In this document: positions 22,612-53,800 of the stretch, piece after piece
Layout: every line of letters starts with the position of its first letter
Numbering within the stretch: the first letter of the stretch is position 1
From: Nemertoderma westbladi
Taxonomy: Eukaryota; Animalia; Xenacoelomorpha
Direction of reading: 5' to 3'
Assembly (NCBI GenBank): GCA_032718475.1
Contig: JAUCBJ010002774.1
Location: 1-64,000 of the forward strand
DNA: 64,000 bases
The notes under the pieces: generated by a model
The model's input: the letters and a program-made list of their open reading frames with translations, nothing else
Told to the model about the DNA's origin: nothing
The model's database searches: none
Made by a program: the position numbers and the translations under genes

Positions 22612-22784
22612 GCGCAGTTGAGAAACAGAAACTCGTCTACATATTGAATCGCGATAGCGAGGCGAGATTGACAATCTCCTCGCCCCTGGAGGCCCATAAA
22701 GCCAATACCATCATCTACTTTACTCTGGGGGTAGATGTTGGGTTCGACAATCCAACGTTCGCCACTCTCGAGATGGACTATGAG
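22612..22784 (+). CDS. SF3B3: SF3B3 coding exon 3
   Basis: CTGTAG acceptor; [30 protein letters not shown]...[19 protein letters not shown]; donor GAG|GTGAGT. 173 nt. Confidence 0.95.
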
Positions 22785-25299: not shown

Positions 25300-25447
25300 G
25301 AAGCTGATAACGATCCATCTGGTGACGCAGCCCAGGTCAGCCAACAGAGTCTAACTTTCTACGAGTTAGATCTCGGACTCAATCACGTAGTCAGAAAGTA
25401 CAGCGAGTTGTTGGAAGAACGGGGGAATATGTTGATAGCAGTACCAG
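25300..25447 (+). CDS. SF3B3: SF3B3 coding exon 4 (not in the ORF track)
   Basis: TTCAG acceptor; EADNDPSGDAAQVSQQSLTFYELDLGLNHVVRKYSELLEERGNMLIAVP; donor CAG|GTGAGT. 148 nt, frame consistent with exons 3 and 5. Confidence 0.95.
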
Positions 25448-28400: not shown

Positions 28401-31400
28401 ATGTTAGATAGCAGTACCGGGTGAGTGAGTGTGGGAGAACGGGGGAATATGTTAGATAGCAGTACCAGGTGAGTGAGTGTGGGAGAACGGGGGAATATGT
28501 TAGGTAGCAGTACCAGGTGAGTGAGTGTGGGAGAACGGGGGAATATGTTGGTAGCAGTACCGGGTGAGTGAGTGTGGGAGAACGGGGGAATATGTTGTAG
28601 CAGTCCAGGTGAGTGAGTGTGGGAGACGGGGGAATATGTTGGTAGCAGTGCCAGGTGAGTGAGTGTGGGAGACGGGGGAATATGTTAGATAGCAGTACCA
28701 GGTGAGTGAGTGTGGGAGGCGGGGGAATATGTTAGGTAGCAGTACCGGGTGAGTGAGTGTGGGAGAGCGGGGAATATGTTGGTAGCAGTACCGGGTGAGT
28801 GAGTGTGGGAGAACGGGGGAATATGTTAAGTAGCAGTACCGGGTGAGTGAGTGTGGGAGAACGGGGGAATATGTTAGGTAGCAGTACCGGGTGAGTGAGT
28901 GTGGGAGAACGGGGAATATGTTGGTAGCAGTACCGGGTGAGTGAGTGTGGGAGAACGGGGGAATATGTTAAGTAGCAGTACCGGGTGAGTGAGTGTGGGA
29001 GAACGGGGGAATATGTTAGGTAGCAGTACCGGGTGAGTGAGTGTGGGAGAACGGGGAATATGTTGGTAGCAGTACCGGGTGAGTGAGTGTGGGAGACGGG
29101 GGAATATGTTGATAGCGGTACCAGGTGGGTGAGTGTGGGAGACGGGGGAATATGTTGGTAGCAGTACCAGGTGAGTGAGTGTGGGAGACGGGGGAATATG
29201 TTGATAGCAATACCGGGTGAGTGAGTGTGGGAGAACGGGGGAATATGTTAGATAGCAATACCAGGTGAGTGAGTGTGGGAGACGGGGGAATATGTTGGTA
29301 GCAGTACCAGGTGAGTGAGTGTGGGAGATGGGGGAATATGTTAGATAGCAGTACCGGGTGAGTGAGTGTGGGAGACGGGGGAATATGTTAGGTAGCAGTA
29401 CCGGGTGAGTGAGTGTGGGAGAACGGGGGAATATGTTAGATAGCAGTACCAGGTGAGTGAGTGTGGGAGAACGGGGGAATATGTTGATAGCAGTGCCAGG
29501 TGAGTGAGTGTGGGAGAACGGGGGAATATGTTAGGTAGCAGTACCGGGTGAGTGAGTGTGGGAGAACGGGGGAATATGTTAGATAGCAGTACCAGGTGAG
29601 TGAGTGTGGGAGAACGGGGGAATATGTTGATAGCAGTGCCAGGTGAGTGAGTGTGGGAGGACGGGGGAATATGTTAGATAGCAATACCAGGTGAGTGAGT
29701 GTGGGGGACGGGGGAATATGTTGGTAGCAGTACCGGGTGAGTGAGTGTGGGAGAACGGGGGAATATGTTAGATAGCAATACCAGGTGAGTGAGTGTGGGA
29801 GACGGGGGAATATGTTGGTAGCAGTACCAGGTGAGTGAGTGTGGGAGATGGGGGAATATGTTAGATAGCAGTACCGGGTGAGTGAGTGTGGGAGACGGGG
29901 GAATATGTTAGGTAGCAGTACCGGGTGAGTGAGTGTGGGAGAACGGGGGAATATGTTAGATAGCAGTACCAGGTGAGTGAGTGTGGGAGAACGGGGGAAT
30001 ATGTTGATAGCAGTGCCAGGTGAGTGAGTGTGGGAGAACGGGGGAATATGTTAGGTAGCAGTACCGGGTGAGTGAGTGTGGGAGAACGGGGGAATATGTT
30101 AGATAGCAGTACCAGGTGAGTGAGTGTGGGAGAACGGGGGAATATGTTGATAGCAGTACCAGGTGAGTGAGTGAGTGTGGGAGAACGGGGTAATATGTTG
30201 ATAGCAGTACCAGGTGAGTGAGTGAGTGTGGGAGAACGGGGGAATATGTTAGGTAGCAGTACCAGGTGAGTGAGTGTGGGAGAACGGGGTAATATGTTGA
30301 TAGCAGTACCAGGTGAGTGAGTGAGTGTGGGAGAACGGGGGAATATGTTAGATAGCAGTACCGGGTGAGTGAGTGTGGGAGAACGGGGGAATATGTTGGT
30401 AGCAGTACCAGGTGAGTGATTGTGGGAGAACGGGGGAATATGTTGGTAGCAGTACCAGGTGAGTGATTGTGGGAGAACGGGGGAATATGTTGATAGCAGT
30501 ACCGGGTGAGTGAGTGTGGGAGATGGGGGAATATGTTGATAGCAGTACCAGGTGAGTGAGTGAGTGTGGGAGAACGGGGGAATATGTTAGGTAGCAGTAC
30601 CAGGTGAGTGAGTGTGGGAGAACGGGGTAATATGTTGATAGCAGTACCAGGTGAGTGAGTGAGTGTGGGAGAACGGGGGAATATGTTAGATAGCAGTACC
30701 GGGTGAGTGAGTGTGGGAGAACGGGGGAATATGTTAGATAGCAGTACCAGGTGAGTGAGTGTGGGAGAACGGGGGAATATGTTAGGTAGCAGTACCAGGT
30801 GAGTGAGTGTGGGAGAACGGGGGAATATGTTGGTAGCAGTACCGGGTGAGTGAGTGTGGGAGAACGGGGGAATATGTTGTAGCAGTCCAGGTGAGTGAGT
30901 GTGGGAGACGGGGGAATATGTTGGTAGCAGTGCCAGGTGAGTGAGTGTGGGAGACGGGGGAATATGTTAGATAGCAGTACCAGGTGAGTGAGTGTGGGAG
31001 GCGGGGGAATATGTTAGGTAGCAGTACCGGGTGAGTGAGTGTGGGAGAACGGGGAATATGTTGGTAGCAGTACCGGGTGAGTGAGTGTGGGAGAACGGGG
31101 GAATATGTTAAGTAGCAGTACCGGGTGAGTGAGTGTGGGAGAACGGGGGAATATGTTAGGTAGCAGTACCGGGTGAGTGAGTGTGGGAGAACGGGGAATA
31201 TGTTGGTAGCAGTACCGGGTGAGTGAGTGTGGGAGAACGGGGGAATATGTTAAGTAGCAGTACCGGGTGAGTGAGTGTGGGAGAACGGGGGAATATGTTA
31301 GGTAGCAGTACCGGGTGAGTGAGTGTGGGAGAACGGGGAATATGTTGGTAGCAGTACCGGGTGAGTGAGTGTGGGAGACGGGGGAATATGTTGGTAGCAG

Positions 31401-33626
31401 TACCAGGTGAGTGAGTGTGGGAGACGGGGGAATATGTTGATAGCAATACCGGGTGAGTGAGTGTGGGAGAACGGGGGAATATGTTAGATAGCAATACCAG
31501 GTGAGTGAGTGTGGGATACGGGGGAATATGTTGGTAGCAGTACCAGGTGAGTGAGTGTGGGAGATGGGGGAATATGTTAGATAGCAGTACCGGGTGAGTG
31601 AGTGTGGGAGACGGGGGAATATGTTAGGTAGCAGTACCGGGTGAGTGAGTGTGGGAGAACGGGGGAATATGTTAGATAGCAGTACCAGGTGAGTGAGTGT
31701 GGGAGAACGGGGGAATATGTTGATAGCAGTGCCAGGTGAGTGAGTGTGGGAGAACGGGGGAATATGTTAGGTAGCAGTACCGGGTGAGTGAGTGTGGGAG
31801 AACGGGGGAATATGTTAGATAGCAGTACCAGGTGAGTGAGTGTGGGAGAACGGGGGAATATGTTGATAGCAGTGCCAGGTGAGTGAGTGTGGGAGGACGG
31901 GGGAATATGTTAGATAGCAATACCAGGTGAGTGAGTGTGGGGGACGGGGGAATATGTTGGTAGCAGTACCGGGTGAGTGAGTGTGGGAGAACGGGGGAAT
32001 ATGTTAGATAGCAATACCAGGTGAGTGAGTGTGTGAGAACGGGGGAATATGTTGATAGCAGTGCCAGGTGAGTGAGTGTGGGAGATGGGGGAATATGTTA
32101 GATAGCAGTACCGGGTGAGTGAGTGTGGGAGACGGGGGAATATGTTAGGTAGCAGTACCGGGTGAGTGAGTGTGGGAGAACGGGGGAATATGTTAGATAG
32201 CAGTACCGGGTGAGTGAGTGTGGGAGACGGGGGAATATGTTAGGTAGCAGTACCGGGTGAGTGAGTGTGGGAGAACGGGGGAATATGTTAGATAGCAGTA
32301 CCAGGTGAGTGAGTGTGGGAGAACGGGGGAATATGTTGATAGCAGTGCCAGGTGAGTGAGTGTGGGAGAACGGGGGAATATGTTAGGTAGCAGTACCGGG
32401 TGAGTGAGTGTGGGAGAACGGGGGAATATGTTAGATAGCAGTACCAGGTGAGTGAGTGTGGGAGAACGGGGGAATATGTTGATAGCAGTGCCAGGTGAGT
32501 GAGTGTGGGAGGACGGGGGAATATGTTAGATAGCAATACCAGGTGAGTGAGTGTGGGGGACGGGGGAATATGTTGGTAGCAGTACCAGGTGAGTGAGTGT
32601 GGGAGACGGGGGAATATGTTGATAGCAGTACCAGGTGAGTGAGTGTGGGAGAACGGGGGAATATGTTGGTAGCAGTACCATGTGAGTGAGTGTGGGAGAA
32701 CGGGGGAATATGTTGATAGCAGTACCAGGTGGGTGAGTGTGGGAGAACGGGGTAATATGTTGATAGCAGCACCAGGTGAGTGAGTGAGTGTGGGAGAACG
32801 GGGGAATATGTTAGATAGCAGTACCGGGTGAGTGAGTGTGGGAGAACGGGGGAATATGTTAGATAGCAGTACCAGGTGAGTGAGTGTGGGAGAACGGGGG
32901 AATATGTTGATAGCAGTACCAGGTGAGTGAGTGTGGGAGAACGGGGTAATATGTTGATAGCAGTACCAGGTGAGTGAGTGAGGGTGGGAGAACGGGGGAA
33001 TATGTTAGATAGCAGTACCGGGTGAGTGAGTGTGGGAGAACGGGGGAATATGTTAGATAGCAGTACCAGGTGAGGGAGAACGGGGGAATATGTTGATATC
33101 AGTACCAGGTGAGTGAGTGTGGGAGAACGGGGGAATATGTTAGGTAGCAGTACCGGGTGAGTGAGTGTGGGAGAACGGGGGAATATGTTAGATAGCAGTA
33201 CCAGGTGAGTGAGTGTGGGAGAACGGGTGAATATGTTGATAGCAGTACCAGGTGAGTGAGTGTGGGAGGACGGGGGAATATGTTAGATAGCAATACCAGG
33301 TGAGTGAGTGTGGGGGACGGGGGAATATGTTGGTAGCAGTACCAGGTGAGTGAGTGTGGGAGATGGGGGAATATGTTGGTAGCAGTACCAGGTGAGTGAG
33401 TGTGGGAGAACGGGGGAATATGTTGGTAGCAGTACCAGGTGAGTGAGTGTGAGAGAACGGGGGAATATGTTGATAGCAGTACCAGGTGAGTGAGTGTGGG
33501 AGACGGGGGAATATGTTGGTAGCAGTACCAGGTGAGTGAGTGAGTGTGGGAGAACGGGGGAATATGTTGGTAGCAGTACCGGGTGAGTGAGTGTGGGAGA
33601 ACGGGGGAATATGTTGGTAGCAGTAC
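25413..33626 (+). repeat. 47-bp satellite GGAGAACGGGGGAATATGTTGRTAGCAGTACCAG|GTGAGTGAGTGTG, block 1
   Basis: About 175 units of 46-52 bp. The first unit is the last ~34 nt of exon 4 plus its donor. Confidence 0.96.
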
Positions 33627-35626
33627 TACTACTACTAGGATCGGCATGCTGCATTGCAGCTGCATTTTTAAGAATGCTGTGCCGGCTTGTCAACAAAATT
33701 GCACCGCCACAACTCCCTATCACCCATGACATTTGCTAGATCATCCGCATCTTTAAGGCCAGTGTCCTTTAAGATGCGTCTCAAGAAAGTCATGGGCTGT
33801 CCACCATGCTTATTCACTCCATGAGGCTGCCAAAGTACAAGATTATGCACTGGCTGGTCCTCACGGCGAAAGCAATGTCCTGCAAAGCGGAGGCGATTTT
33901 GTTCTAGTGTCAAGCTTGGGGGAACCAATGAGACACCTCCAATGTTATATAGTGTCTGGTTGGAGATGTGTGCATTGTACTTGACACAATGTACCCGGCG
34001 TAGCATTCTTGTGAATGTGCCATCCAGAGATTTGGTGTCCTCAGCAGTTAGAGCCCAGCATGGACTCCCGTAGAGGAGTACTGGAACTACTGCTGCTCTA
34101 AATAATCGGACCTTAAGTTTCCGATTAATTCTAGGTGACTTCCAAATCCTGGAAAGCCTATTCAAGGCTGCCCATGCCTTTCCCTTACGTATTCGAAGGT
34201 CCTCACCTGACTTCCGGATCCATGATCCCAGGTAACAGAAGTCGTCCACATGCTCAAGCATACCATCCTTTGAGCTTATGCTCATCCGATCAGAGACTTG
34301 CTGAGGACTTTCAAAGTTAACTGTCAGAATTTTGGTCTTTCTGGAGTTAATAAAAAGACCAACACTAGAAGCAGCATGTTCTAATGAGCTGAGGAGCCGC
34401 TGGGCTCCCTCTAATGATTCTGAGAGTACTCCTAAGTCATCAGCAAAGTCTAGATCAGTTAGGTACTTGGCAGGATTTCCTCGACTTCTGGAGCCAGTAG
34501 GTGGAGTTATCATCACCCCATCATCATTATGATGATCTAAGGACATGCGTAGAACATAGTCAACCACAATAATGAACAAGAATGGTGCAAGTGTGTCTCC
34601 TTGGAGGACGCCCCATAACACTTCAAATGGTTCTGTGTCACCGTCAACAGTAGACACAAATGTTGTCGAACCATCGTATACTGATCTGATTGCTGCAATA
34701 ATTTCATCAGGAATCCCATATAATGAAAGTATGCTGAACATACGTGAGCGAGAGACTGAATCAAAGGCCTTGAAGAAGTCAACAAAGATAACAGCCAGAT
34801 GCCTGTCTTTCTTTTTTGATAACTCTTCAATTATCCTTCTAAGTGCCAAAATGGGCTCCATGGTCCCACGACCTTTACGGAACCCATTCTGATTTCCACG
34901 TAGCAGTCTCTCAATGGGATCTCTGATGCGATTTAATAGAATTCTATTGTATAGTTTTGCAGCAATCGAGATCAATGAGATTCCCCGAAAAGAACCATAG
35001 AGTGTTAGGTTGCCCTTCTTGGGAACTGGCACCAACTTATTTGTTTTCATTTCTTGTGGGACTCTTGTTGTACGGTACATGTCTACTATGATGGGATAGA
35101 TGAGCTTTAAACACTCAGGTATTTTAAAGACCTCAGGGGGAACACCATCTACTCCACTGGCACGATTGGTCTTAATGCTCTTTGCAGCAGCCTTCACTTC
35201 TGCAAAGGAGATATCGCCAATGGGAATATCTGGGAGTACAGACTCAGACACTTTTACTTCTATAAAGTTATCAGGCAATACCCTGTCATTATTGAGGAGC
35301 TTTTCAAAGTGGGCTTTCCAACCATTAAGGCGATCGGCTGGTGATTCAGCCTTAACCTTGGTGGTTGGTTGGCTTTTCCGCCCAGTAAGCAGATTGATCG
35401 ATTTCCATGCCTGGGATGATTGCCTGCTGTCGTCAGCATCATTGATGGCATCAACCTGTTGGTTTATTAGCTCCTGTAGATTAACAGAGTACTGCCTGTT
35501 CAGGGACCTAGATGCAGCTTTAACTGTATTCTTGGCCGCTGTAGTCTGTTTGAGTCGGGACTCTTTCTGCGCCTTATGAAGGTCATTTCGGCACTTCTGA
35601 ATTTTTTTTTGAATTTTTGGAATAAC
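33627..35626 (-). mobile_element. 5'-truncated RTE-like LINE with an uninterrupted RT frame, inserted in the 47-bp satellite
   Basis: 13-bp TSD TTGGTAGCAGTAC at 33614-33626 and 35627-35639; (TAG)n 3' tail. ORF to 33668 has FRGISLISIAAKLYNRILLNR, QNGFRKGR, FVDFFKAFDSV, GVLQGDTLAPFLF, LDFADD, FCYLGS and RLRFAGHC. No endonuclease domain present. Confidence 0.9.
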
Positions 35627-36808
35627 TTGGTAGCAGTACCAGGTGAGTGAGTGTGGGAGATGGGGGAATATGTTGGTAGCAGTACCAGGTGAGTGAGTGT
35701 GGGAGACGGGGGAATATGTTGGTAGCAGTACCAGGTGAGTGAGTGTGGGAGAACGGGGGAATATGTTGATAGCAGTACCGGGTGAGTGAGTGTGGGAGAT
35801 GGGGGAATATGTTGGTAGCAGTACCAGGTGAGTGAGTGTGGGAGAACGGGGGAATATGTTGATAGCAGTACCAGGTGAGTGAGTGTGGGAGACGGGGGAA
35901 TATGTTGGTAGCAGTACCAGATGAGTGAGTGTGGGAGATGGGGGAATATGTTGGTAGCAGTAGCAGGTGAGTGAGTGTGGGAGAACGGGGGAATATGTTG
36001 ATAGCAGTACCAGGTGAGTGAGTGTGGGAGAACGGGGGAATATGTTGATAGCAATACCGGGTGAGTGAGTGTGGGAGAACGGGGGAATATGTTGGTACCA
36101 GTACCGGGTGAGTGAGTGTGGGAGAACGGGGGAATATGTTGGTAGCAATACCGGGTGAGTGAGTGTGGGAGAACGGGGGAATATGTTGGTAGCAATACCG
36201 GGTGAGTGAGTGTGGGAGAACGGGGGAATATGTTGGTAGCAATACCGGGTGAGTGAGTGTGGGAGAACGGGGGAATATGTTGGTAGCAATACCGGGTGAG
36301 TGAGTGTGGGAGAACGTGGGAATATGTTGGTAGCAGTACCAGGTGAGTGAGTGTGGGAGACGGGGGAATATGTTAGATAGCAGTACCAGGTGAGTGAGTG
36401 TGGGAGAACGGGGGAATATGTTAGATAGCAGTACCAGGTGAGTGAGTGTGGGAGAACGTGGGAATATGTTGGTAGCAGTACCAGGTGAGTGAGTGTGGGA
36501 GAACGGAGGAATATGTTGATAGCAGTACCAGGTGAGTGAGTGTGGGAGACGGGGGAATATGTTAGATAGCAGTACCAGGTGAGTGAGTGTGGTAGAACGG
36601 AGGAATATGTTGATAGCAGTACCAGGTGAGTGAGTGTGGGAGAACGGGGGAATATGTTAGATAGCAGTACCAGGTGAGTGAGTGTGGGAGAACGGGGGAA
36701 TATGTTGGTAGCAGTACCGGGTGAGTGAGTGTGGGAGAACGGGGGAATATGTTGATAGCAGTACCGGGTGAGTGAGTGTGGGAGAACGGGGGAATATGTT
36801 GATAGCAG
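35627..36808 (+). repeat. 47-bp satellite, block 2
   Basis: About 25 further units, ending ~330 bp before the exon 5 acceptor. Confidence 0.95.
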
Positions 36809-37142
36809 CCGTAACGGGAAAAATTGAATTTACGCAATGACTATCATTTATTTAAATAGTTTGTTAACTATGTTTTATAATTTGATGTAATAATGTTCAT
36901 TATAACTGTTGTTATCGAGAAGGTAAATAAAGTGTTTTATTTACTGTAAAATATGCAATTTTATTGGTAAATTTTAAATAACCTTGGTTCCCCCCGTTAA
37001 ACAACTATGAGTTACAGAGTCAGCGATAAATTAAATTATATAATTTTCAGTCTATCTTATATTAAGTCTGTATAATTTCGCGCTGTGCCATAAGGTCAGC
37101 GGTAAATTCGGTATATTTGATCATTTTTTTTCACCGATTTAG

Positions 37143-37249
37143 GCGGAGGCGATGGTCCCAGTGGGGTTCTTATCGGAGCGGAGAACTACATCACTTACAA
37201 AAACTTTGGCGACCAGCCAGATATCCGGATGCCAATACCTAGACGGCGG
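37143..37249 (+). CDS. SF3B3: SF3B3 coding exon 5 (not in the ORF track)
   Basis: TTTAG acceptor; GGGDGPSGVLIGAENYITYKNFGDQPDIRMPIPRRR; donor CGG|GTTAGT. 107 nt. Confidence 0.95.
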
Positions 37250-37295
37250 GTTAGTTTGTAGTTAAATACCTGGACGATGGATTAGTTTGTAGTTA
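37234..37295 (+). repeat. Two-copy 31-bp tandem duplication spanning the exon 5 donor
   Basis: AATACCTAGACGGCGG|GTTAGTTTGTAGTTA followed by AATACCTGGACGATGGATTAGTTTGTAGTTA (27/31 identical). Confidence 0.9.
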
Positions 37296-37440: not shown

Positions 37441-37537
37441 AATGATTTGGATGACCCCGACAGAGGAATGCTATTCGTTTCCTCGGCAACCCATAAAACC
37501 AAAGCCATGTTCTTTCTTCTGCTGCAAACTGAGCAAG
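37441..37537 (+). CDS. SF3B3: SF3B3 coding exon 6 (not in the ORF track)
   Basis: T-rich tract then CCAG acceptor; NDLDDPDRGMLFVSSATHKTKAMFFLLLQTEQ(G); donor AAG|GTTAGT. 97 nt. Confidence 0.95.
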
Positions 37538-38327
37538 GTTAGTTACATTATTGAGCTGCAAATTCAGTCTGGATTCTAAAATGTTTGATGGTTTGAGTTT
37601 TTGTTGAATCAAAATGATTTCGCCCTTGAAATAATTTATTATATTCCTGTAACACACGGCAGAGCCGAATATTTACACGAACGAGCGAAGCGAGTTGATT
37701 CTCGCAATGTTTTTCGCGAACTCTGATTGAATATTATAATATCTTATACGTTAAGAAGAAACTACTCTGGTCATTTTATGCCAATCACAATTAAGCTAAA
37801 TTATGAAAGTGAATAACGTAATAGTTAGTTACTTTAAGCAACAAGTTCTCATTAACTGCAAGCCGTTAATAAATATGGTGAGAGCTCAAGGGAATGCATG
37901 GATCACTTCACTATAGAGTCGCGTTCATAAATCGAGAAATTTATCGTAAAAAATTAATTATTCTTTGATAATTGCTACATTTATTAATATGATATTTACA
38001 CATCCCGCGCGAGCTTATACTTTATAAATACAAAAAATACACAAATTAGGAAATTCAAATTATATATCAGGAAGAAATATTAAGCCTACTTTACATTTGA
38101 TGGCACACAATGCAGAAATCCCTAGAGGTTAATAAATTAATTGTAATTAAATTAATGAAAATTTAAATCATAACCAATAATTGTGTACAAAAACAGACTT
38201 TTCAAAACTAAGTGCTCCTTTATAGTAAAACCCATAAAACCACAGGCTTTTACCATGGAATTGTATACAAGTTTCTCCATGGCAACTGCCAACGACTGGG
38301 GGACTGGTAGCCTTGACGACCACCGCA

Positions 38328-38630
38328 TTACGATGGAGATATGAAAATGTAGTAAAGCAATGAAACTACTAGAATGCAGTAACGGTTGCTGTGAGTCTGG
38401 AGTGTGGGTGCGGCGCTGGGTTTGTTACACAACGTCGTCGCGCAACAGTTAGCCGAACAGATGTCGGCGTCGCCTCCCCCGTCGCCTAGGAACGGACCGT
38501 GTCCTTTGTTTTGTTCCACGCAACTGGTAACCAAGGAACACGGCGCTGGGGGTAGAGATGATTTCTCGCAATTCATCACGCTGACCACAGTTATCTCCCC
38601 GTTGGAGTTGCGTGAACGCATTGTTTGTTC
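38328..38630 (-). CDS. Ly6/uPAR (three-finger)-like GPI-anchored protein, last exon
   Basis: TTTCAG acceptor; EQTMRS...NCEKS...CSLVTSC...ICSANCCATTLCN (CCxxxxCN hallmark), then KPSAAP and a hydrophobic tail YCILVVSLLYYIFISPS* consistent with a GPI signal. Confidence 0.72.
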   Translation of the reverse strand, partial: EQTMRSRNSNGEITVVSVMNCEKSSLPPAPCSLVTSCVEQNKGHGPFLGDGGGDADICSANCCATTLCNKPSAAPTLQTHSNRYCILVVSLLYYIFISPS

Positions 38631-39034
38631 CTGAAATATAAATAACAATCGGTTGACCGAATGATACTAGTTATTATTTCAAATTTTATATTGATTTACT
38701 AATCTGTTTTTAAGGTCTTTTAAAAATGCCCTGAAAGACGCTATAAATTTTGATATTTTCTTTATAATTTTTCGAGCATAAAATTATAAAACAGACGTAC
38801 AAATAAATTATCGAGATTTATATTGTGCAACACCGGCGTTCTTGGTAGCAATACCCCCACACACGTGTCTGATACGTTAGTGAACAAAGTATCTTCGCAA
38901 ATCACGGGAAGGTTTTCACACTACATAATCAATAACTCCTATTTAAACCTTGTTATAACAATAACACGGTATGGTCGAAGATTTCTTGTGCCACGTGGGA
39001 GGCCCCAACAAGGTGTCCGTATGCTTAAGTCTAC

Positions 39035-42000
39035 TTACACTACTCTACACTTCATATTAACTCACTAACCACTACACTACACTTCATTTTAACTCACTAA
39101 CCACTATACTACATTTCATATTAACTCACTAACCACTACACTACACTTCATATTAACTCACTAACCACTATACTACACTTCAGATTAACTCACTAACCAC
39201 TACATTACACTTCATATTAACTCACTAACCACTACACTACACTTCATATTAACTCACTAACCACTATACTACACTTCAGATTAACTCACTAACCACTACA
39301 TTACACTTCATATTAACTCACTAACCACTACACTACACTTCATATTAACTCACTAACCACTATACTACACTTCAGATTAACTCACTAACCACTACATTAC
39401 ACTTCATATTAACTCACTAACCACTACATTACACTTCATATTAACTCACTAACCACTACACTACACTTCATATTAACTCACTAACCACTATACTACACTT
39501 CAGATTAACTCACTAACCACTACATTACACTTCATATTAACTCACTAACCACTACACTACACTTCATATTAACTCACTAACCACTATACTACACTTCAGA
39601 TTAACTCACTAACCACTACATTACACTTCATATTAACTCACTAACCACTACACTACACATCATATTAACTCACTAACCACTATACTACACTTCAGATTAA
39701 CTCACTAACCACTACATTACACTTCATATTAACTCACTAACCACTACACTACACTTCATATTAACTCACTAACCACTATACTACACTTCAGATTAACTCA
39801 CTAACCACTACATTACACTTCATATTAACTCACTAACCACTACACTACACTTCATATTAACTCACTAACCACTATACTACACTTCAGATTAACTCACTAA
39901 CCACTACATTACACTTCATATTAACTCACTAACCACTACACTACACTTCATATTAACTCACTAACCACTACACTACACTTCATATTAACTCACTAACCAC
40001 TATACTGCACTTCATATTAACTCACTAACCACTAGACTACACATTATATTAACTCACTAACCACGACACTACACTTCATATTAACTCACTAACCACTACA
40101 CTACACTTCATATTAACTCACTAACCACTACACTACACTTCATATTAACTCACTAACCATTACACTACACATCAGATTAACTCACTAACCACTACACTAC
40201 ACATCATATTAACTCACTAACCACTACACTACACTTCATATTAACTCACTAACCACTACACTACACTTCATATTAACTCACTAACCACTATACTGCACTT
40301 CATATTAACTCACTAACCACTAGACTACACATTATATTAACTCACTAACCACGACACTACACTTCATATTAACTCACTAACCAATACACTATACTTCATA
40401 TTAACTCACTAACCACTACACTGCACTTCATATTAACTCACTAACCACTACACTAGACTTCATATTAACTCACTAACCACTACACTTCAGATTAACTCAC
40501 TAACCACTGCATTACACTTCATATTAACTCACTAACCACTACACTACATTTCATATTAACTCACTAACCACTACACTAGACTTCATATTAACTCACTAAC
40601 CACTACACTACACTTCATATTAACTACTAACCACTACACTACACTTCATATTAACTCACTAACCACTACAACACTACATTTCATACTAACTCTCTAACCA
40701 CTACACTACACTTCATATTAACTCACTAACCACGACACTACACTTCATATTAACTCACTAACCAATACACTATACTTCATATTAACTCACTAACCACTAC
40801 ACTGCACTTCATATTAACTCACTAACCACTACACTAGACTTCATATTAACTCACTAACCACTACACTTCAGATTAACTCACTAACCACTGCATTACACTT
40901 CATATTAACTCACTAACCACTACACTACATTTCATATTAACTCACTAACCACTACACTAGACTTCATATTAACTCACTAACCACTACACTACACTTCATA
41001 TTAACTACTAACCACTACACTAGACTTCATATTAACTCACTAACCACTACACTACACTTCATATTAACTCACTAACCACTACACTACACTTCATATTAAC
41101 TCACTAACCACTACACTGCACTTCATATTAACTCACTAACCACTACACTACACATCATATTAACTCCCTAACCATTACACTACACATCAGATTAACTCAC
41201 GAACCACTACACCACACAACATATTAACTCACTAACCACTACACTACACTTCATATTAACTCACTAACCACTACACTACACTTCATATTAACTCACTTAC
41301 CATTACACTACACATCAGATTAACTCACTAACCACTACACTACGCATCATATTAACTCACTAACCATTACACTACACATCAGATTAATTCACTAACCACT
41401 ACACTACATATCATATTAACTCACTAACCACTACACTACACTTCATATTAACTCACTAACCACTACACTACACTTCATATTAACTCACTAACCATTACAC
41501 TACACATCAGATTAACTCACTAACCACTACACTACACATCATATTAACTCACTAACCACTACACTAGACTTCATATTAACTCACTAACCACTACACCACA
41601 CTTCATATTAACTCACTAACCGTTACACTACACATCAAATTAACTCACTAACCACTACACTACACATCATATTAACTCACTAACCACTACACTACACTTC
41701 ATATTAACTCACTAACCACTACACTACACATCAGATTAACTCACTAACCACTACAACACTACACTTCATACTAACTCTCTAACCACTACACTACACTTCA
41801 TATTAACCCAATAACCACTACACTACACTTCATATTAACTCACTAACCACTACAACACTACACTTCATATTAACTCACTAACCATTACACTACACATCAG
41901 ATTAACTCACTAACCACTACACTACACATCATATTAACTCACTAACCACTACACTACACTTCATATTAACTCACTAACCACTACACTACACGTCATATTA

Positions 42001-43236
42001 ACTCACTAACCACTATACTGCACTTCATATTAACTCACTAACCACTAGACTACACATTATATTAACTCACTAACCACTACACTACACTTCATATTAACTC
42101 ACTAACCACTACAACACTACATTTCATACTAACTCTCTAACCACTACACTACACTTCATATTAACTCACTAACCACTACACTACACTTCATATTAACTCA
42201 CTAACCACTACAACACTACACTTCATATTAACTCACTAACCACTACACTACACATTATATTAACTCACTAACCAACCACTACACTGCACGTCATATTAAC
42301 TCACTAACCACTACACTACACTTCATATTAACTCACTAACCACTACATTACACTTCATATTAACTCACTAACCACTACAACACTACACTTCATACTAACT
42401 CTCTAACCACTACACTACACTTCATATTAACCCAATAACCACTACACTACACTTCATATTAACTCACTAACCACTACAACACTACACTTCATATTAACTC
42501 ACTAACCACTACACTACACATTATATTAACTCACTAACCACTACAACACTACACTTCATACTAACTCTGTAACCACTACACTACACTTCATATTAACTCA
42601 CTAACCAACCACTACACTACACTTCATATTAACTCACTAACCAACCACTACACTACACTTCATATTAACTAACCAACCACTACACTACACTTCATATTAA
42701 CTCACTAACAAACCACTACACTACACTTCATATTAACTCACTAACCAACCACTACACTACGCGTCATATTAACTCACTAACCACTACACTACACTTCATA
42801 TTAACTCACTAACCAACCACTACACTACACGTCATATTAACTCACTAACCACTACACTACACATTATATTAACTCACTAACCACTACACTACACTTCATA
42901 TTAACTCACTAACCACTACAACACTACACTTCATATTAACTCACTAACCACTACACTACACATTATATTAACTCACTAACCACTACACTACACTTCATAT
43001 TAACTCACTAACCACTACACTTCATATTAACTCACTAACCATTACACTACACTTCATATTAACTCACTAACCAACCACTACACTACACTTCATATTAACT
43101 CACTAACCACTACACTACACATTATATTAACTCACTAACCACTAGACTACACATTATATTAACTCACTAACCACTACACTACACATTATATTAACTCACT
43201 AACCACTAGACTACACATTATATTAACTCACTAACC
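39035..43236 (-). repeat. 32-bp satellite (TTAATATGAAGTGTAGTGTAGTG|GTTAGTGAG)n starting at the donor of the Ly6-like gene
   Basis: About 130 units of CTCACTAACCACTACACTACACTTCATATTAA on the + strand. The array edge coincides with ACG|GTTAGTGAG at 43236/43235. Confidence 0.95.
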
Positions 43237-43336
43237 GTACAATGACCACAGTCGTATTTAATTTCAAGTTCGTCAACATTTATTTCTTCTATATTTTCAT
43301 CGAGGAATTTGTATGTTCCTTTGTAGCAAGTTACCC
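43236..43336 (-). CDS. Ly6/uPAR-like gene, upstream exon (5' end uncertain)
   Basis: TTTTTCAG then (G)VTCYKGTYKFLDENIEEINVDELEIKYDCGHCT, donor ACG|GTTAGT. The phase-0 end joins exon 38630 in frame, and the V-T-C-Y start is typical of LU domains. The signal-peptide exon was not identified; the in-frame MPKLRPLLVISFS is an alternative start. Confidence 0.6.
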
Positions 43337-44180: not shown

Positions 44181-45269
44181 TACATATAAATGTATAATAA
44201 CAAACACATCGAAAAACACAGCTTGTCAACACATTGTTACCGTTCAATAATAACTCATTCTGTCAGACCTGTGTGTATTTTTGCAACTTTTTCCATAAAA
44301 CATTGATACCCTCCCTATATGAACTCTTTGTAAATTGATTCGAATGCCAGTTTTTGTCATCATAAATGACGATGAAATTTGGTTGAAATTTGGCAGTAAA
44401 TTCATTTTCAACATAAATAGTTATTGTGAAAAGAAAAGCAGAATATCGATGCAGATACAGAAATCAGAGAATACTTATTAAATTTAACGTGTATTTTTGA
44501 AAAGTTTGAGAAAAATTCCGCTAATATAGCTCACATTTACTTTATGACATTATAGAAACCGACTTTGCCTCCCACAAACCCGATGATATAAAGTTGATTC
44601 AATTTATGGATGTCACAATTTTGTATTAATTAACTCTGTTTTTGGACGACCAAACGCCTTCTGTATTCTAGCCCAGGGCCAACCAGGCCTTAATCCGCCC
44701 CTGTAGGCTGTTCAAGTCATGGTGATGGTGTCAATACCATATTGTGAGTTATTTCACTGAAAAAAATACTTACATTTACCACACCAAATTAACAAGCGGC
44801 TCAATTAGAACCTTAATGATTGATTTAGTGAGTGTATGTGCTGTGCAGTACCTTGAATATAAAAGCTGGGTAATTGGTGCTCGAGATATTTAACAATACC
44901 TGCATTGTAGTTACATCTAGGATAAATAGTTAGTATCAATGCCATTTCTTTTGTCTACTATCACGAAAACCAATGATGTTACTGTCTGATGTTTTTTTCA
45001 CAATATCGCTTTGTCTCGCAACCATTATTTCGACGATTTCAGATCGAATGAGCATATTATTATTATTAATATTATTGCGGTATGTGCAGTGTCGCGCTAG
45101 ACATAAACCGTCTCGCCGAATTGGTATAATTGTGAGAGTCTTTAGCTCAGCTTACAGTTTAATTTTTAAACGTAATCAGCTGTTATTTGCGTCAATTTTC
45201 CTACTGGAGAGGGATACATTTTGACCACCACACACCGCCCACCTATCTGGAATGGCGTGGACGATTCAC

Positions 45270-46450
45270 CGTACTTAGTTCCAATTTAAGCCTCATGCGA
45301 ATTTAGTTCCAATGGAAACGAATTTAGTTTCAATTTTGGCGAACTTAGTTCCAATAACTAGAGAAAAACGAAAACGAATTTAGTTCCAATGGATGCGAAT
45401 TTAGTTCCAATGGAAGCGAATTTAGTTCCAATGCAAGCGAATTTAGTTCCAATGCAAGCGAATTTAGTTCCAATGGAAGCGAACTTAGTTCCAATGTTTC
45501 AGGTGTGGGGCGAGCCACGTAGTTGGCGAAGAATCTGTTTAAGGACACCATTAGGTGGATGGTTAAATAATAATTGTAAATAACTAACCCAAACAACGCC
45601 CAACCTCCTAACCAAAACAATTTAATTAGATTCATTTCTATTTAATCATTTAAAATTATATTCATTGTAAAAAACAACGCCAAAGGTCTTAACCCAAACT
45701 ACGCCCAACCTCCTAGCCCAAACAACTGGTAAATATTGTATTTGGTGTGAAAATGGCACAATGTGTATGACTTGAGTATATAATACTACAGACTCAGTCA
45801 GTCAGTATCAGTATACTCGTGATTAATATATATTTCAAAATGTGCAATTATACATTTTAATTCATTAAATGACAGAAGGGTTTTACAATTATTTACAATT
45901 ATTGTTGACCCTGACCCACCCCAAATAGTGGCAATACGCAATAGGCTTCGCCTACTACGTGGCTATCCCCACGATTGAAACATTGGAACAAAGTTCGTAC
46001 CCATTGGAACTAAATTCGCTTCCATTGGAACTAAATTCGCATGCATTGGAACTAAATTCGCTTGCATTGGAACTAAATTCGCATGCATTGGAACTAAATT
46101 CGCTTGCATTGGAACTAAATTCGCTTGCATTGGAACTAAATTCGCATGCATTGGAACTAAATTCGCTTGCTTTGGAACTAAATTCACATGCATTGGAACT
46201 AAATTCGCATGCATTGGAACTAAGTTCGCATCCATTTGGAACTAAATTCGCTTCCATTGGAACTAATTTCGCATCCATTGGAACTAAATTCGCATCCATT
46301 GGAACTAAGTTCGTTTTGATATTCCGGGATTGGAACTAAGTTCGCCTTGATTGGAACTAAGTTCGCTTTGTAAAATTTATTTTGGAACTAAATTCGTTTC
46401 AATTGGAACTAAGTTCGCATTTGAAAATGTGCGATTGGAAATAAGTTCGT
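45270..46450. mobile_element. Head-to-head pair of Helentron-like ends carrying inverted 21-bp tandem arrays
   Basis: (GCGAATTTAGTTCCAATGCAA)n at 45270-45497 followed by GTGGGGCGAGCCACGTAGTTGGCGAAG. Mirror image CTTCGCCTACTACGTGGCTATCCCCAC followed by (TTGCATTGGAACTAAATTCGC)n at 45946-46450. Confidence 0.7.
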
Positions 46451-48428
46451 TCTACCGCGTGGACTCACCTTCGCATAATTGAGGTGTTAAAATTCCGCAG
46501 AACAATATGATAATGTCATATAACGTGGCTCGATTCATCCTTGTAGAGAAATCTTTCACCCATAAATCGACGGTATTTGTCATATATAATTATGAAATTA
46601 AATTCATAAAATGAATTCGTGAAACAATTCAGAAATATAAACTATTTATTATGCACTAATGTAAATATACTACAACGCATGTAAACGTAACTGCAAACAA
46701 AACATCATAAAAGCAAATGAGACAGAGTTTAGGGTAATGACTAACTCAATGATTTTAATAAAAGCGTTAGATGGAGGTGTACTTTCTATTTACTATATTA
46801 TACTCAAAGGATATATCAATTCTCACGAGGTTTATCTATTGAGTAGAATGTTGCATTATTTATAAAGGGAGGTTGGTATTGCACTAGTTAATGATGAAAT
46901 TAATGTTTTAACACCCACCTTCTTTTGGTCTCCTGTGGGGGCGGCTTCCTTTTAAACTATTTATGTGCATTTTTATTTAAAGGTGATTTCAGTGTTGACA
47001 TATATAGACGTTGAAATCATGTTGAATTTAATTTGTGTCGGTTAGGATTGTTTATTTTAGTCTGTGTAATTAGACAGACAATAATTATTAGTGATGCAAA
47101 ATCAAACTGAAATTGAACTGAAATATAAATCAAACTTAAATTTAACTGAAACATGAATCAAACTGAAATTGATACCATAAATTGAAATTGATATTTAAGG
47201 GTGTCAACGCTACGCCGACAACACAGCTATGAACAATTAGTGTTAATTAACGTGAATTATCAATTGAGGGAAAGGTACAGGTAGCAGTGGTAGGCTATTC
47301 TAACCAAAACAATAAACGGGAATTAATCACACAGGTTACAGAATAGATCTTGTTCGTAATAAAAGTTGTTAGTTGTTATCTTTGGATGAAATGCTGTCCA
47401 ATTTTTGATGAAGGTAAATGTAAAAGCAGCGTAAATGTTACTTTTAAAAAGTAAATGTTTGATTGATACGATAGGGGCGCCATAGCAACCGTTATTGCAG
47501 CAATTATTTAATGGACCATAGTATCGATCGCTAATGGCTGTTGTGTAATATTTCTTTGTGTAAGCTTATAAACACTAATACACTGTGTGTATGTGTAATC
47601 GCGTCGCTCCTATCTTATATCTCTATCACGGGCCGGCTCAGTGCTGTGTTTATCCAGTAGGGACTGAAACCCACAACCACGGATAGTTTGCCTGAGTCGA
47701 GACCACCTGCCCCTTCTACCTGTATCCGATGGCATTGCGAGCGCGTTTTCCAGTCCATAATTCCAGGCAATAACTAAACATACCCATACCGTGTTGTCAC
47801 CGCACCGATGATACTGTCACCAGTTCTTTATCTTTACTCCCAGCTCGAATTCCTACATCTACTCTATACTGAAATTTCAAGTGGCTCGCCTTGTATTTGT
47901 CTATTCTGTGGTACATGTTGCCGTTATTGGTTCGCTTGCCCCCATTCCTTCTTGGCGTGTAAGTCTTATCTTAAGATCGTTTGTCGTACTAATGTCTCTC
48001 TCTGTTCTTCTTACTTTTGCGTGTATTTGTGTTTACTTTATAGTGAACAAATTATGTAATATTAAAATACTTTTTTTTCGGAAATTGAAATATTATATCA
48101 TTACGTGATACATGCTATGCCGAAATGTATGAGTCGATTTACTATATGAGACCGGTGAGATGGGATGGTTTTATGAGACCGGTGAGACACACATCACCAC
48201 TATTGGGCCTGTCAAGGCATATAAATCATTGTAAAGCTCATTTGTCTCGTCTTACTTTTCGGTAGAAACTAAAAGTAAGATTTTTCGCAAAAATATGGGA
48301 ATAGTTGTTGTGTCTTTTTGGACAAAATTTAATTTTCGATCCTTTAATGTTATACATAATATATTATGATTATACTAATCATGGCTCAGCATTAAAATAC
48401 CGAATCCTAAAATACGGGGATTCAAATT

Positions 48429-49195
48429 CTGAAACAAACACACTGGTAACAGAATACTGAAACAAACAGACTGGTAACAGAATACTGAAACAAACAGACT
48501 GGTATCAGAATACTGAAACAAACAGACTGGTATCAGAATACTGAAACAAACACACTGGTATCAGAATACTGAAACAAACAGACTGCTTCAGAATACTGAA
48601 ACAAACTTACTGTTATCAGAATACTGAAACAAACAAACTGGTATCAGAATACTGAAACAAACAGACTGCTTCAGAATACTGAAACAAACTTACTGTTATC
48701 AGAATACTGAAACAAACAAACTGGTATCAGAATACTGAAACAAACAGACTGCTGTCAGAATACTATACTGGAACAAACTTACTGTTATCAGAATACTGAA
48801 ACAAACACACTGGTATCAGAATACTGAAACAAACAGACTGCTATCAGAATACTGAAACAAACTTACTGTTATCAGAATACTGAAACAAACACACTGGTAT
48901 CAGAATACTGAAACAAACAAACTGGTATCAGAATACTGAAACAAACATAATGGTATCAGAATCCCTGAAACAAACACAATGATTTCAGAATATTGAAACA
49001 TACACGCCGATATCAGAATACTGAAACAAACACCCCAGTATCGAGTATCAAAATACTGAAACAAACTCACCGGTATCAGAACAGACTGGTATCAGAATAC
49101 TGAAACAAACACACTGCTATCAGAATACTGAAACAAAGGCACCTGTATCCTAATGCTGAGACAAACATCACACCGGTATCAGATTACTGATACAA
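48429..49195. repeat. 28-bp minisatellite (CAGAATACTGAAACAAACACACTGGTAT)n
   Basis: About 27 units, degenerating towards 49195. Confidence 0.92.
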
Positions 49196-50815
49196 AGACA
49201 AAAAGCAAAAAGAACACTGAATTAATTTCTTCAGTTTCAGTGAGGGACTAAAGTATGATAGCGTATAATAGCTTAATAAATTACCTGTCCGAAATTAGAG
49301 AAAAAAATAATTGATTTATCCTTAAATTTAAGTATATTTAAATTTAAGTAATAATGAAGTAATTTAGTAAACAATTTATATATTAAGTAACACACAATTA
49401 ATTGTAATTATACGTCAAAAATTGTCATTTTTTATTTTTTTTTATTTAACAAATTTTTTATTTAATATATACCATGCTAAAAGAAATGATTAAACTCTGA
49501 AATGTAATTATATTGACTACATAAGTTATTATAAAATGTTATAAAACAAATGCCACATTTATCTACATAACTCAGCTATTTTGTTGGTAGGCTATGATGT
49601 GCCGTTACAGTATGAATTGGTATGTTGAATATTCCAGTGATTACTATGCCTCGGCACGTTCGCGTAACCACCACCTTCTGTCGGGACTCATACTTAGAAT
49701 AATTTATTTAACGAAATTCCCTAAGTTATGCCGACATATGGCAGCATCACAGCAGAAAAAATGCATAATTCTAGGCCTTGTTATTCACTGTATGGCTGTT
49801 TGACTTGACTTTTGCTGCATTTTAAGTACTTGCCATAATACACTACTATAATACAAGTACGCAAAATAAATTGTTGTGTCTCTATATATAAGAACTAAAT
49901 TGTTGTTGTACACCGTATTATTATACCTCCAGTAAATGTGTCTCAGTTTGTTCTGAGTCTCTGGAATAAGCAACCAATGGTTACATTTTCATCCTAAGAA
50001 ATGCCTGTTCCATTGATGATAGCATTCTCATCATCCTTTCCTAAACTTTTCAACCAATGCAATTCCTACAATCTGTCAGGTTATCCATGTAGGTAGAGAT
50101 TGCCATTTGTTACAAAGAGTAGTTATGTATATCATTGCACGATAATTTGCAATCACACACACACGGGTGGTACTGAGCATTCCCTTAAAATTCCATACCG
50201 TTCGCAAATTGAAGTTACAGGTTGGAGAGATATTGGCAAATACTCCAAAATTATATTTACATTGAGGAAATAGTGAATTGATTGGGTGGATTGAAAATTG
50301 TAACTAATTGAAATTGTGAAAAATACGTGCACCCCATTGACGCCTGCCGGCCCTTGTGAAGAATACCAGACCTGGTATTCTTCACATGGGCGCGCCTGCC
50401 TATGCACAGAACAAAAAGTTAGTGCTATTTGTTTTGTCTGCCCCTATTGTGAAATACGCATTATTCGCAAATATGCTTTTCATATTTTGTGAGCTATTTA
50501 TTATTTTATTTGATAAAAGTGTTGGAGTGGATACAGTCTCTTGTATAATTAGTTCAAATAGGGTTCTAATACTGACCTATACCATTTACCTCATATATCC
50601 GCACTATTAAAAATTAAATCACCGCAAATGGTGTCCAAGTTAACGTTGATGGGATGTTATGACAGACCTGTACCACACTTATTTATGTTCGTTCTTGCCG
50701 TCTCATACTCATATCGGTGGATCCCGTATATATATTGTTAAGTTTTTAAAGTAAATACGTTGTCTATATCCATACCATGCATATCTACACCTATATATGG
50801 TTATTTCACTCATAA

Positions 50816-53800
50816 GTGCTGTTTATTTTACCACTATGTACTATTATATTATTTCTCAGTGTTGTTTATTTTACCACTATGTACTATTATATTATTTATC
50901 AGTGTTGTTTATTTTACTCCTATGTACTATTATATTATTTCTCAGTGTTGTTTATTTTACCACTATGTACTATTATATTATTTCTCAGTGTTGTTTATTT
51001 TACTACTATGTACTATTATATTATTTCTCAGTGTTGTTTATTTTACCACTATGTACTATTATATTATTTCTCAGTGTTGTTTATTTTACCACTATGTACT
51101 ATTATATTATTTATCAGTGTTGTTTATTTTACCACTATGTACTATTATATTATTTCTCAGTGTTGTTTATTTTACCACTATATACTATTATATTATTTAT
51201 CAGTGTTGTTTATTTTACCACTATGTACTATTATATTATTTCTCAGTGTTGTTTATTTTACTACTATGTACTATTATATTATTTATCAGTGTTGTTTATT
51301 TTACCACTATGTACTATTATATTATTTCTCAGTGTTGTTTATTTTACCACTATGTACTAGTAGATTATTTCTCAGTGTTGTTTATTTTACCACTATGTAC
51401 TATTATATTATTTCTCAGTGTTGTTTATTTTACTACTATGTACTATTGTATTATTTATCAGTGTTGTTTATTTTACCACTATGTACTATTATATTATTTC
51501 TCAGTGTTGTTTATTTTACCACTATGTACTATTATATTATTTATCAGTGTTGTTTATTTTACCACTATGTACTATTATATTATTTCTCAGTGTTGTTTAT
51601 TTTACCACTATGTACTATTATATTATTTATCAGTGTTGTTTATTTTACCACTATGTACTATTATATTATTTCTCTATTTCTCATTGTTTTTATTTTACGA
51701 CTATGTACTATTATATTATTTCTCAGTGTTGTTTATTTTACTACTATGTACTATTATATTATTTATCAGTGTTGTTTATTTTACTACTATGTACTATTAT
51801 ATTATTTCTCAGTGTTGTTTATTTTACCACTATGTACTATTATATTATTTCTCAGTGTTGTTTATTTTACCACTATGTACTATTATATTATTTATCAGTG
51901 TTGTTTATTTTACCACTATGTACTATTATATTATTTCTCAGTGTTGTTTATTTTACCACTATGTACTATTATATTATTTCTCAGTGTTGTTTATTTTACT
52001 ACTACTATGTACTATTATATTATTTATCAGTGTTGTTTATTTTACCACTATGTACTATTATATTATTTCTCAGTGTTGTTTATTTTACCACTCTGTACTA
52101 TTATATTATTTATCAGTGTTGTTTATTTTACTACTATGTACTATTATATTATTTATCAGTGTTGTTTATTTTACCACTATGTACTATTATATTATTTATC
52201 AGTGTTGTTTATTTTACCACTATGTACTATTATATTATTTATCAGTGTTGTTTATTTTACCACTATGTACTATTATATTATTTATCTATTTCTCAGTGTT
52301 GTTTATTTTACGACTATGTACTATTATATTATTTCTCAGTGTTGTTTATTTTACTACTATGTAGTATTATATTATTTCTCAGTGTTGTTTATTTTACTAC
52401 TATGTACTATTATATTATTTCTCAGTGTTGTTTATTTTACCACTATGTACTATTATATTATTTCTCAGTGTTGTTTATTTTACCACTATGTACTATTATA
52501 TTATTTCTCAGTGTTGTTTATTTTACCACTATGTACTATTATATTATTTCTCAGTGTTGTTTATTTTACTACTATGTACTATTATATTATTTCTCAGTGT
52601 TGTTTATTTTACCACTATGTACTATTATATTATTTATCAGTGTTGTTTATTTTACCACTATGTACTATTATATTATTTCTCAGTGTTGTTTATTTTACCA
52701 CTATGTACTATTATATTATTTATCAGTGTTGTTTATTTTACCACTATGTACTATTATATTATTTCTCAGTGTTGTTTATTTTACTACTATGTACTATTAT
52801 ATTATTTCTCAGTGTTGTTTATTTTACCACTATGTACTATTATATTATTTATCAGTGTTGTTTATTTTACCACTATGTACTATTATATTATTTCTCAGTG
52901 TTGTTTATTTTACCACTATGTACTATTATATTATTTATCAGTGTTGTTTATTTTACCACTATGTACTATTATATTATTTATCAGTGTTGTTTATTTTACC
53001 ACTATGTACTATTATATTATTTCTCAGTGTTGTTTATTTTACCACTATGTACTATTATATTATTTATCAGTGTTGTTTATTTTACCACTATGTACTATTA
53101 TATTATTTCTCAGTGTTGTTTATTTTACCACTATGTACTATTATATTATTTCTCAGTGTTGTTTATTTTACTACTATGTACTATTATATTATTTCTCAGT
53201 GTTGTTTATTTTACCACTATGTACTATTATATTATTTATCAGTGTTGTTTATTTTACCACTATGTACCATTATATTATTTCTCAGTGTTGTTTATTTTAC
53301 TACTATGTACTATTAGATTATTTCTCAGTGTTGTTTATTTTACCACTATGTACCATTATATTATTTCACAGTGTTGTTTATTTTACCACTATGTACTATT
53401 ATATTATTTCTCAGTGTTGTTTATTTTACCAAATGTACTATTAGATTATTTCTCAGTGTTGTTTATTTTACCACTATGTACTATTATATTATTTCTCAGT
53501 GTTGTTTATTTTACCACTATGTACTATTATATTATTTCTCAGTGTTGTTTATTTTACCACTATGTACTATTATATTATTTCTCAGTGTTGTTTATTTTAC
53601 CACTATGTACTATTATATTATTTATCAGTGTTGTTTATTTTACCACTATGTACTATTATATTATTTCTCAGTGTTGTTTATTTTACCACTATGTACTATT
53701 ATATTATTTCTCAGTGTTGTTTATTTTACCACTATGTACTATTATATTATTTCTCAGTGTTGTTTATTTTACCACTATGTACTATTATATTATTTCTCAG

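Follow-up and report, generated by a model that had tools for sequence, protein, structure and literature searches.

A 32-bp minisatellite that begins, to the base, at the predicted donor of a small gene raises the question of which sequence it was built from, and whether its many copies of a donor word serve any purpose. The locus lies in a window of 64,000 nt (the whole stretch of DNA analysed here), in which other repeats are similarly placed, and is probably to be read as a duplication across an exon–intron junction that has been amplified to an unusual size.

A donor-word minisatellite in a predicted intron

The array occupies positions 39038 to 43236 on the minus strand and comprises 130 units, each opening with the donor word GTTAGTGAG, within the predicted intron 2 of a Ly6-like gene. 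Tandem Repeats Finder returns a period of 32, 130.0 copies and 90 % matches for this interval, confirming that the array of about 130 units described in the initial annotation is real. Parsed on the minus strand, and as present in one haplotype, the 130 units resolve into 43 distinct strings, the most frequent of which accounts for 32 units, with a 35-bp TTG form occurring nine times. The hexamers GTTAGT and GTGAGT number 125 and 118, respectively, bearing out the earlier description of two donor-like hexamers per unit, and the donor-like words are confined to the minus strand, with none on the plus strand. The predicted intron itself (38631 to 43235, minus strand) is of GT–AG type and phase 0, and has a length of 4605 nt, of which 4201 bases (91 %) belong to the array, in agreement with the share of about 90 % of a 4.6-kb intron given originally. 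Its acceptor is situated in approximately 400 nt of unique sequence.

The first unit is at distance 0 from the first intron base behind 43236, and the edge of the array falls 0 nt from this predicted donor, so that the proposed anchoring of the array to the donor of the Ly6-like gene is upheld. Read-through from exon 2 into the array leads to a TAA after five codons, the same stop that had been noted before, and a coding repeat is rejected on account of it. GT is kept at +1/+2 in all 130 units. Turnover appears to have proceeded in blocks, as nine consecutive identical units recur at an offset of 12, compared with at most five in 300 shuffles, and the far end displays a three-unit higher-order repeat. 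The sense strand contains 589 AG dinucleotides, which should make poor acceptors because no pyrimidine run in the array exceeds 3 nt. As for hairpins in the RNA, the computed fold of a 320-nt piece of the array is less stable than that of its shuffles (−29 versus −36 ± 3 kcal/mol), and an exact search of metagenome contigs with the array unit returned no matches.

The gene model surrounding this intron consists of three predicted coding exons, all on the minus strand. The first (46469 to 46538) encodes an ATG, a hydrophobic signal peptide and a phase-1 donor, GTGAGT; the second (43236 to 43336), the donor of which adjoins the start of the array, encodes the first half of an LU-like domain with three cysteines; the coding part of the third (38328 to 38630) provides the rest of the LU-like domain, the motif CCxxxxCN, a hydrophobic tail resembling a GPI signal, and the stop codon. 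A candidate poly(A) signal, AATAAA, is located 343 nt behind the stop codon (37980 to 37985, minus strand), and a second candidate starts at 37640. The three exons join in frame to give 157 aa with no internal stop, comprising a signal peptide and ten cysteines in the mature part, which ends in CCxxxxCN and the hydrophobic tail. Among the 989 GT sites of exon 2 and the array, just two allow reading to continue in frame as far as the C-terminal tail, and all cysteines, including Cys53 and Cys56, are retained solely with the donor at 43236; read-through, or the use of a later donor, would result in a 62-residue product ending at the stop. Judged by this reading frame, 43236 is presumably the donor in use.

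Junction repeats in the adjacent SF3B3 gene

The same window harbours, on the plus strand, exons 1–6 of SF3B3, assigned by homology (9363–9588, 10510–10680, 22612–22784, 25300–25447, 37143–37249 and 37441–37537). Together these encode residues 1–307, which align without gaps and at 80–82 % identity to the best 25 of 120 homologues. In a tree of 38 rows that drew on 37 of those 120 homologues, the SF3B3 of the window stands by itself on a long branch, and a sulfotransferase has a best match of no more than 31 % identity, so that the source is assigned to the animals and no more finely. Exon 7 was not found in the window, using tblastn and a profile built from 30 of 39 full-length homologues; a weak candidate at 63279–63362 (E 0.34–1.8) was set aside, as a stop codon precedes it in frame and its position coincides with the margin of a local duplication. 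The Ly6-like gene sits behind SF3B3 exon 6 on the opposite strand. Should SF3B3 be complete, intron 6 would measure at least 26 kb, and the Ly6-like gene would be nested within it in antisense orientation.

Three further repeats are found at SF3B3 donors, all on the plus strand. A 16-bp donor-word array runs from the first base of intron 2 (10679 to 19297), with a retroelement-like interruption and its edge 1 nt from the donor of exon 2; comparison with the end of exon 2 shows no resemblance (p 0.78–0.85). At exon 4, a 47-bp array of approximately 197 units (25412 to 36808), also bearing a retroelement-like interruption, has a unit composed of 34 nt of exon end and 13 nt of donor, with 32 of the 34 exon bases identical. 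The donor of exon 5 is spanned by a 31-bp duplication of two copies (37234 to 37295), in which 13 of 17 exon bases are kept and the GT of the second donor is lost (GTTAGT versus ATTAGT). The exon match scores of the 47-bp and 31-bp repeats were each reached by none of 2000 null sequences, and these two sister repeats clearly hold exonic as well as intronic sequence. SF3B3 introns 5 and 6, both fixed by homology, likewise have as their donor GTTAGT, the word repeated in the Ly6-like gene.

Across the window there are 14 merged arrays, five of which begin or end no more than 40 nt from any of the eight donors; four of these five contain the donor, the fifth being a 21-bp inverted element. Junction repeats are thus present at four of eight donors, compared with an expectation of 0.034 per donor (P ~9 × 10−5, calculated post hoc). 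As the array at the predicted Ly6-like donor lies on the strand opposite to SF3B3, the suggestion that the pattern extends beyond splicing-factor genes is sustained. The junction repeats of this window, present at every second donor and with copy numbers between 2 and about 200, lend themselves to a genome-wide count at donors and acceptors.

Proposed origin and known precedents

The reading favoured here, to which a probability of about 0.68 is assigned, is that the array is a ‘mirage’ minisatellite, in which a short duplication, probably taking in the end of the exon together with nine bases at the head of the intron, was amplified to 130 copies. A piece of approximately 32 nt across the junction would first have been tandemly duplicated, leaving the exon and the first donor intact. 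Unequal exchange or slippage may then have multiplied and homogenised the copies blockwise; traces of this are visible in the array, with the mechanism itself being conjectural. The exon's own copy, held under protein constraint, would meanwhile have drifted apart from the array, and such drift might account for the weak match between unit and exon today. Only the first donor would be used, to produce the full protein, with any later donor expected to give the 62-aa stop-truncated product, and decay of the stop-containing forms could serve as a back-up. Stages of such a process are represented in the window by the two-copy repeat at SF3B3 exon 5 and by the 47-bp array with its 32 of 34 exon bases. 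What the neutral model leaves unaccounted for is the frequent seeding of repeats at donors.

Such an origin also bears on polarity. The initial annotation held that the polarity of the array follows the Ly6-like gene and not SF3B3; this is correct insofar as donor words are restricted to the minus strand, but the array is not blank on the plus strand, where 125 ACTAAC words are read. The further claim, that polarity points to a link with the direction of transcription or splicing, is not supported, nor is it needed, as a unit derived from a donor takes over the strand of that donor. The copied junction sets the orientation of the array, and further copies can accumulate only within the intron, since in the exon they would disrupt the protein.

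Minisatellites of this description are known from lancelets, where tandem repeats across exon–intron boundaries that keep the splice signals have been termed mirages, and have been reported for Adh3, the globins BflGb6 and BflGb9, troponin C and PGBD5 (PMC3087553, PMC3902484). In these accounts splicing is reportedly undisturbed, the repeats evolve in concert, and how they arise is said to be unclear (PMC3087553, PMC3902484). The array described here shares with them head-to-tail repeats at a boundary, a kept splice signal and block-wise unit turnover, and its 32-bp unit falls within the 10–72 bp given for Adh3 (PMC3087553, PMC3902484). It differs in copy number, with 130 units against the 3–6 stated for BflGb6, in filling 91 % of its intron, in the borderline exon share of its unit, and in belonging to another animal and to a gene that lies antisense behind SF3B3 exon 6.

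A second precedent is the 37-bp VNTR in intron 7 of human F7, for which the most upstream of 5–9 identical donors is reported as the sole one used (PMC1557585). As in F7, the first unit of the array holds the predicted authentic donor and the downstream copies are of equal strength: the first of the 125 GTTAGT words stands at the exon end, and pseudo-sites of the same sequence follow. The two differ in scale (5–9 donors in F7 versus about 240 donor-like hexamers here) and in evidence, as use of the first site is described as experimental for F7, whilst in the Ly6-like gene it is deduced from the reading frame and from this mammalian case. Were the approximately 240 equal-strength words behind the weakest donor of the window to stay silent, the locus would exemplify first-site selection at about 25 times the scale of F7. 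The array would behave as a mirage or an F7-type donor repeat does, with strict mirage status resting on the exon share, and it probably represents a very large case of the kind of repeat known from lancelets and human F7. The openly accessible literature covered here offers reports on individual genes and surveys of the human genome (PMC2812944, PMC10078293), and no description of kilobase-long donor arrays on a genome-wide scale was found in it.

Exonic or intronic ancestry of the unit

The initial annotation described the unit as loosely resembling the exon end. A resemblance is indeed present, yet it is weak, with p between about 0.004 and 0.12 depending on the unit, null and scoring applied, and is thus borderline. 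Four scoring schemes were used for this comparison. For the commonest unit, the score against the exon end was reached by 4–11 of 300 background, 1–3 of 255 coding and 3–24 of 300 shuffled sequences; for the best of all unit variants, the corresponding counts are 8–23 of 300, 2–6 of 150 and 11–37 of 300. The first copy in the array, when set against the end of exon 2, gives p 0.15–0.24 (2000 null sequences). At the far end, a donor-like piece attains a score reached by 365–536 of 5000 random segments, which is not significant. As the exon part is borderline and this far-end remnant not significant, the 32-bp unit may be purely intronic.

Such an origin would make the array an intron-head minisatellite, in which the opening 32 bases of the intron, themselves a degenerate TAGTG repeat that starts with the donor, were amplified by slippage. 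No exon sequence would then have been copied, and the array would consist of silent extra donors, yet strictly speaking it would be no mirage. The recurrence of TAGTG inside the unit speaks for this, as do the first copy, which is not significantly exon-like, and the 16-bp sister array, with its lack of an exon match. Conversely, the commonest unit outscores 96–99.6 % of background and coding nulls and 92–99 % of shuffles, and two of the sister repeats in the window are clear copies of exon sequence. An origin in the intron head is accordingly considered rather unlikely, although it fares best among the alternatives to a junction-spanning duplication.

Donor strength, conservation and possible function

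Pairing with the U1 end gives −6.2 kcal/mol for the authentic donor, compared with −6.0 and −5.7 kcal/mol for the copies. With U1 pairing nearly equal for the copies and the authentic site, strength cannot pick out the right donor. The donor at 43236 is moreover the weakest of the eight in the window, the other seven ranging from −6.7 to −13.0 kcal/mol. This weakness is one of several observations that would suit a functional array of donors, the weak copies of which load U1 snRNP onto the nascent Ly6-like transcript, whether to back up the weak authentic donor, to block premature cleavage, or to divert transcripts into the stop-containing form.

No excess conservation is apparent at the donor positions of the array, with 7 substitution types at 7 positions versus 25 at 25 (p 0.60), nor is there any in the two sister arrays (p 0.26 and 0.68, the test on the 47-bp array being made on an imperfect unit). 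Positions −1, +1 and +2 are, however, among the eight columns that are invariant over the 130 units (p 0.011, post hoc), which is a faint hint of selection. The 16-bp array displays no such invariance, with 12 substitutions at +1/+2 in 222 units. Also compatible with function are the absence of arrays at any of the seven acceptors, set against junction repeats at four of eight donors, a difference that is not significant (Fisher p 0.077), and the G-richness of the sense strand in all three large gene-anchored arrays (skew 0.66–0.93). Against it stand the lack of overall donor-position conservation in each of the three arrays, the loss of GT from the duplicate donor at SF3B3 exon 5, the retroelement-like insertions within two sister arrays, and the disuse of the downstream sites in F7. 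A donor-loading function for the array is therefore regarded as very unlikely.

Assessment of the Ly6-like gene model

A different objection would be that the predicted gene structure is incorrect, or the gene dead, in which case the array merely abuts a GT. The first exon emerged from a screen of the 20.6 kb upstream (43337–64000), on the minus strand, for an ATG followed by a hydrophobic stretch and a phase-1 donor; the exon at 46538–46469, with two nested ATGs and one donor, is the sole exon to pass. Signal peptide and tail were judged by hydrophobicity and by eye, and cysteine pairing was likewise assigned by eye. Ly6/uPAR (LU) genes are described as having one exon for the signal peptide, one for the first half of the LU domain, and one for the second half and the GPI signal (PMC4839075). 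In common with these, the model has three coding exons, a phase-1 first intron, a terminal CCxxxxCN and a GPI-like tail. Differences are a length of about 100 residues and, as judged by spacing, the seeming absence of the 2–3 cysteine pair and the presence of an extra pair. Loss of the 2–3 pair is reported to be common among LU genes, the second intron of which is placed at the tip of loop 2 (PMC6600238). Intron 2 of the present gene is instead in phase 0 and located at the base of the putative loop 2, one residue behind the putative fifth cysteine. This off-tip position weakens strict LU membership but leaves the gene model standing.

In homology comparisons, exon 3 yields CD59 in Pfam at E 0.84, below the cut-off, and lies at 0.86–0.90 to the QVR and UPAR/Ly6 clusters in the Atlas (recognition 2317), with no profile match of significance for the Ly6 label. 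Its predicted structure, for exon 3 alone, has a pLDDT of 45, the sole better-predicted element being a hairpin at its start, and exon 2 alone is uninformative in profile and fold comparison. A word-based protein search with exon 3 returned no candidate homologue, a PDB search gave one irrelevant match (E 0.7), and an exact search of metagenome contigs with a stretch of exon 2 gave no matches.

The case for a wrong model thus draws on the absence of a homologue by word search, the Pfam score below cut-off and the departure of intron 2 from the position typical of LU genes. It is countered by three exons with good acceptors that together encode, in frame and with no stop, a signal peptide, a cysteine domain and a hydrophobic tail, by an exon order as described for Ly6 genes with a poly(A) signal behind it, and by three other donors, fixed by homology, that are anchored to repeats in the same manner. 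Taken with these, an erroneous model or a dead gene appears highly improbable.

The array as read on the SF3B3 strand

On the plus strand, the array (39038 to 43235) contains 125 ACTAAC words, of which 119 are ACTAACC and 7 TACTAAC, together with 17 CAG and no donor-like word. The rest of the plus strand holds 11 ACTAAC, and 119 of the motifs in the array have an upstream TAAY half site. On this strand, 13 of the 28 AGs within the array lie about 18 nt behind an ACTAAC, and are preceded by 8–9 pyrimidines in 14 positions, compared with 9–12 at the seven predicted acceptors. ACTAAC is the reverse complement of GTTAGT, and hence any repeat of a GTTAGT donor yields branch-point words; under the junction-spanning origin preferred here, these would be a by-product of the donor.

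The array might nonetheless be two-faced, offering about 240 donor-like words to U1 on the minus strand and 125 branch-point words in the pre-mRNA of the U2 snRNP gene SF3B3, where it could, from within intron 6, serve as a decoy that diverts SF1 or Quaking-type proteins from branch points. Alternatively, its 13 branch-point-to-AG modules could provide cryptic 3′ splice sites and a poison route that cuts SF3B3 output. In either event, an array seeded at the donor of one gene would tune a branch-site factor encoded on the opposite strand. Tandem UACUAAC is reported to bind SF1 in Gomafu (PMC3116199), the ACTAACC found 119 times here is the repeat word given for MIAT/Gomafu (PMC10950597), and SF1 and QKI are described as competing for ACUAA (PMC13004596). 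These reports, the enrichment of ACTAAC, the half sites and the spacing of the AGs are the points in favour. However, the motif follows from the GTTAGT donor by complementarity, the array is anchored to a minus-strand donor and to no plus-strand feature, only seven of the words take the high-affinity form TACTAAC, the cryptic AGs are poorer in pyrimidines than the predicted acceptors, and transcription of SF3B3 across the array is presumed, exon 7 being outside what was found in the window; a function for the plus-strand words is thus unlikely, and a two-faced array the least probable reading of all. If true, a plus-strand function would amount to a novel mode of interaction between overlapping genes, an outcome of equally slight probability; nothing on an antisense branch-point reading was found in the openly accessible literature covered. 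Tandem ACUAAC(C) branch-point words are what the plus strand has in common with Gomafu/MIAT (PMC3116199, PMC10950597). The 3–7 repeats of Gomafu are described as part of a non-coding RNA that is stable and nuclear, with conservation between species (PMC3116199), whilst the words of the array are intronic, mostly CACTAAC, and derived from a donor on the opposite strand.

Arrays and divergence of SF3B3

Retroelement-like sequences, judged by eye from the sequence, lie within two of the plus-strand SF3B3 arrays, the 16-bp donor-word repeat of intron 2 (10679–19297) and the 47-bp array (25412–36808), whose unit joins 34 nt of the exon 4 end to 13 nt of donor. These insertions occupy about 12650–16720, 18345–18885 and 33630–35615 and are flanked on both sides by array units, such that the arrays either predate the insertions or grew around them. 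At its terminus (36790–36830), the 47-bp array breaks off in that portion of the unit which derives from the exon and lacks a final donor, and the original intron start therefore seems to have been lost or replaced.

The SF3B3 branch in the tree is long (0.38 versus a median of 0.059), despite which the reading frame (9363–37537) is intact across 307 residues. Eight large array segments account for 36 % of the window. A stretch of 28 codons at 63279–63362 (+) is roughly 40 % identical to the region of SF3B3 around residues 318–340 (E-values of 0.34–1.8); a stop lies upstream of it, and it is either a decayed remnant or a chance similarity.

Repeats around predicted exon 1 of the Ly6-like gene

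The predicted intron 1 of this minus-strand gene harbours, within 45256–46464, a 21-bp unit in two inverted arrays (45297–45496 and 45981–46449). An 8-bp direct repeat, GCGTGGAC, which occupies intron positions +5 to +12 at the exon 1 donor, is found on either side of the pair. Together, the inverted arrays and direct repeat look like a foldback-type insertion.

Upstream of exon 1, a 28-bp array (48425–49200), to which no exon is assigned, repeats the acceptor-like word TTTGTTTCAG on its minus strand. Further upstream, a 43-bp array (50815–55621, 111 copies) contains 112 donor-like GTAA words on the minus strand versus 0 on the plus, with a diverged first unit near 55640. If the Ly6-like gene had a further, non-coding exon upstream, this array could lie behind it, but none was assignable.

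Other reading frames

Two further plus-strand frames are present: a single-exon frame of 400 aa (5517–6719), with a best match to galactose-3-O-sulfotransferase 2-like (31 % identity), and one of 381 aa (61691–62836) with motifs that, by eye, appear reverse-transcriptase-like.
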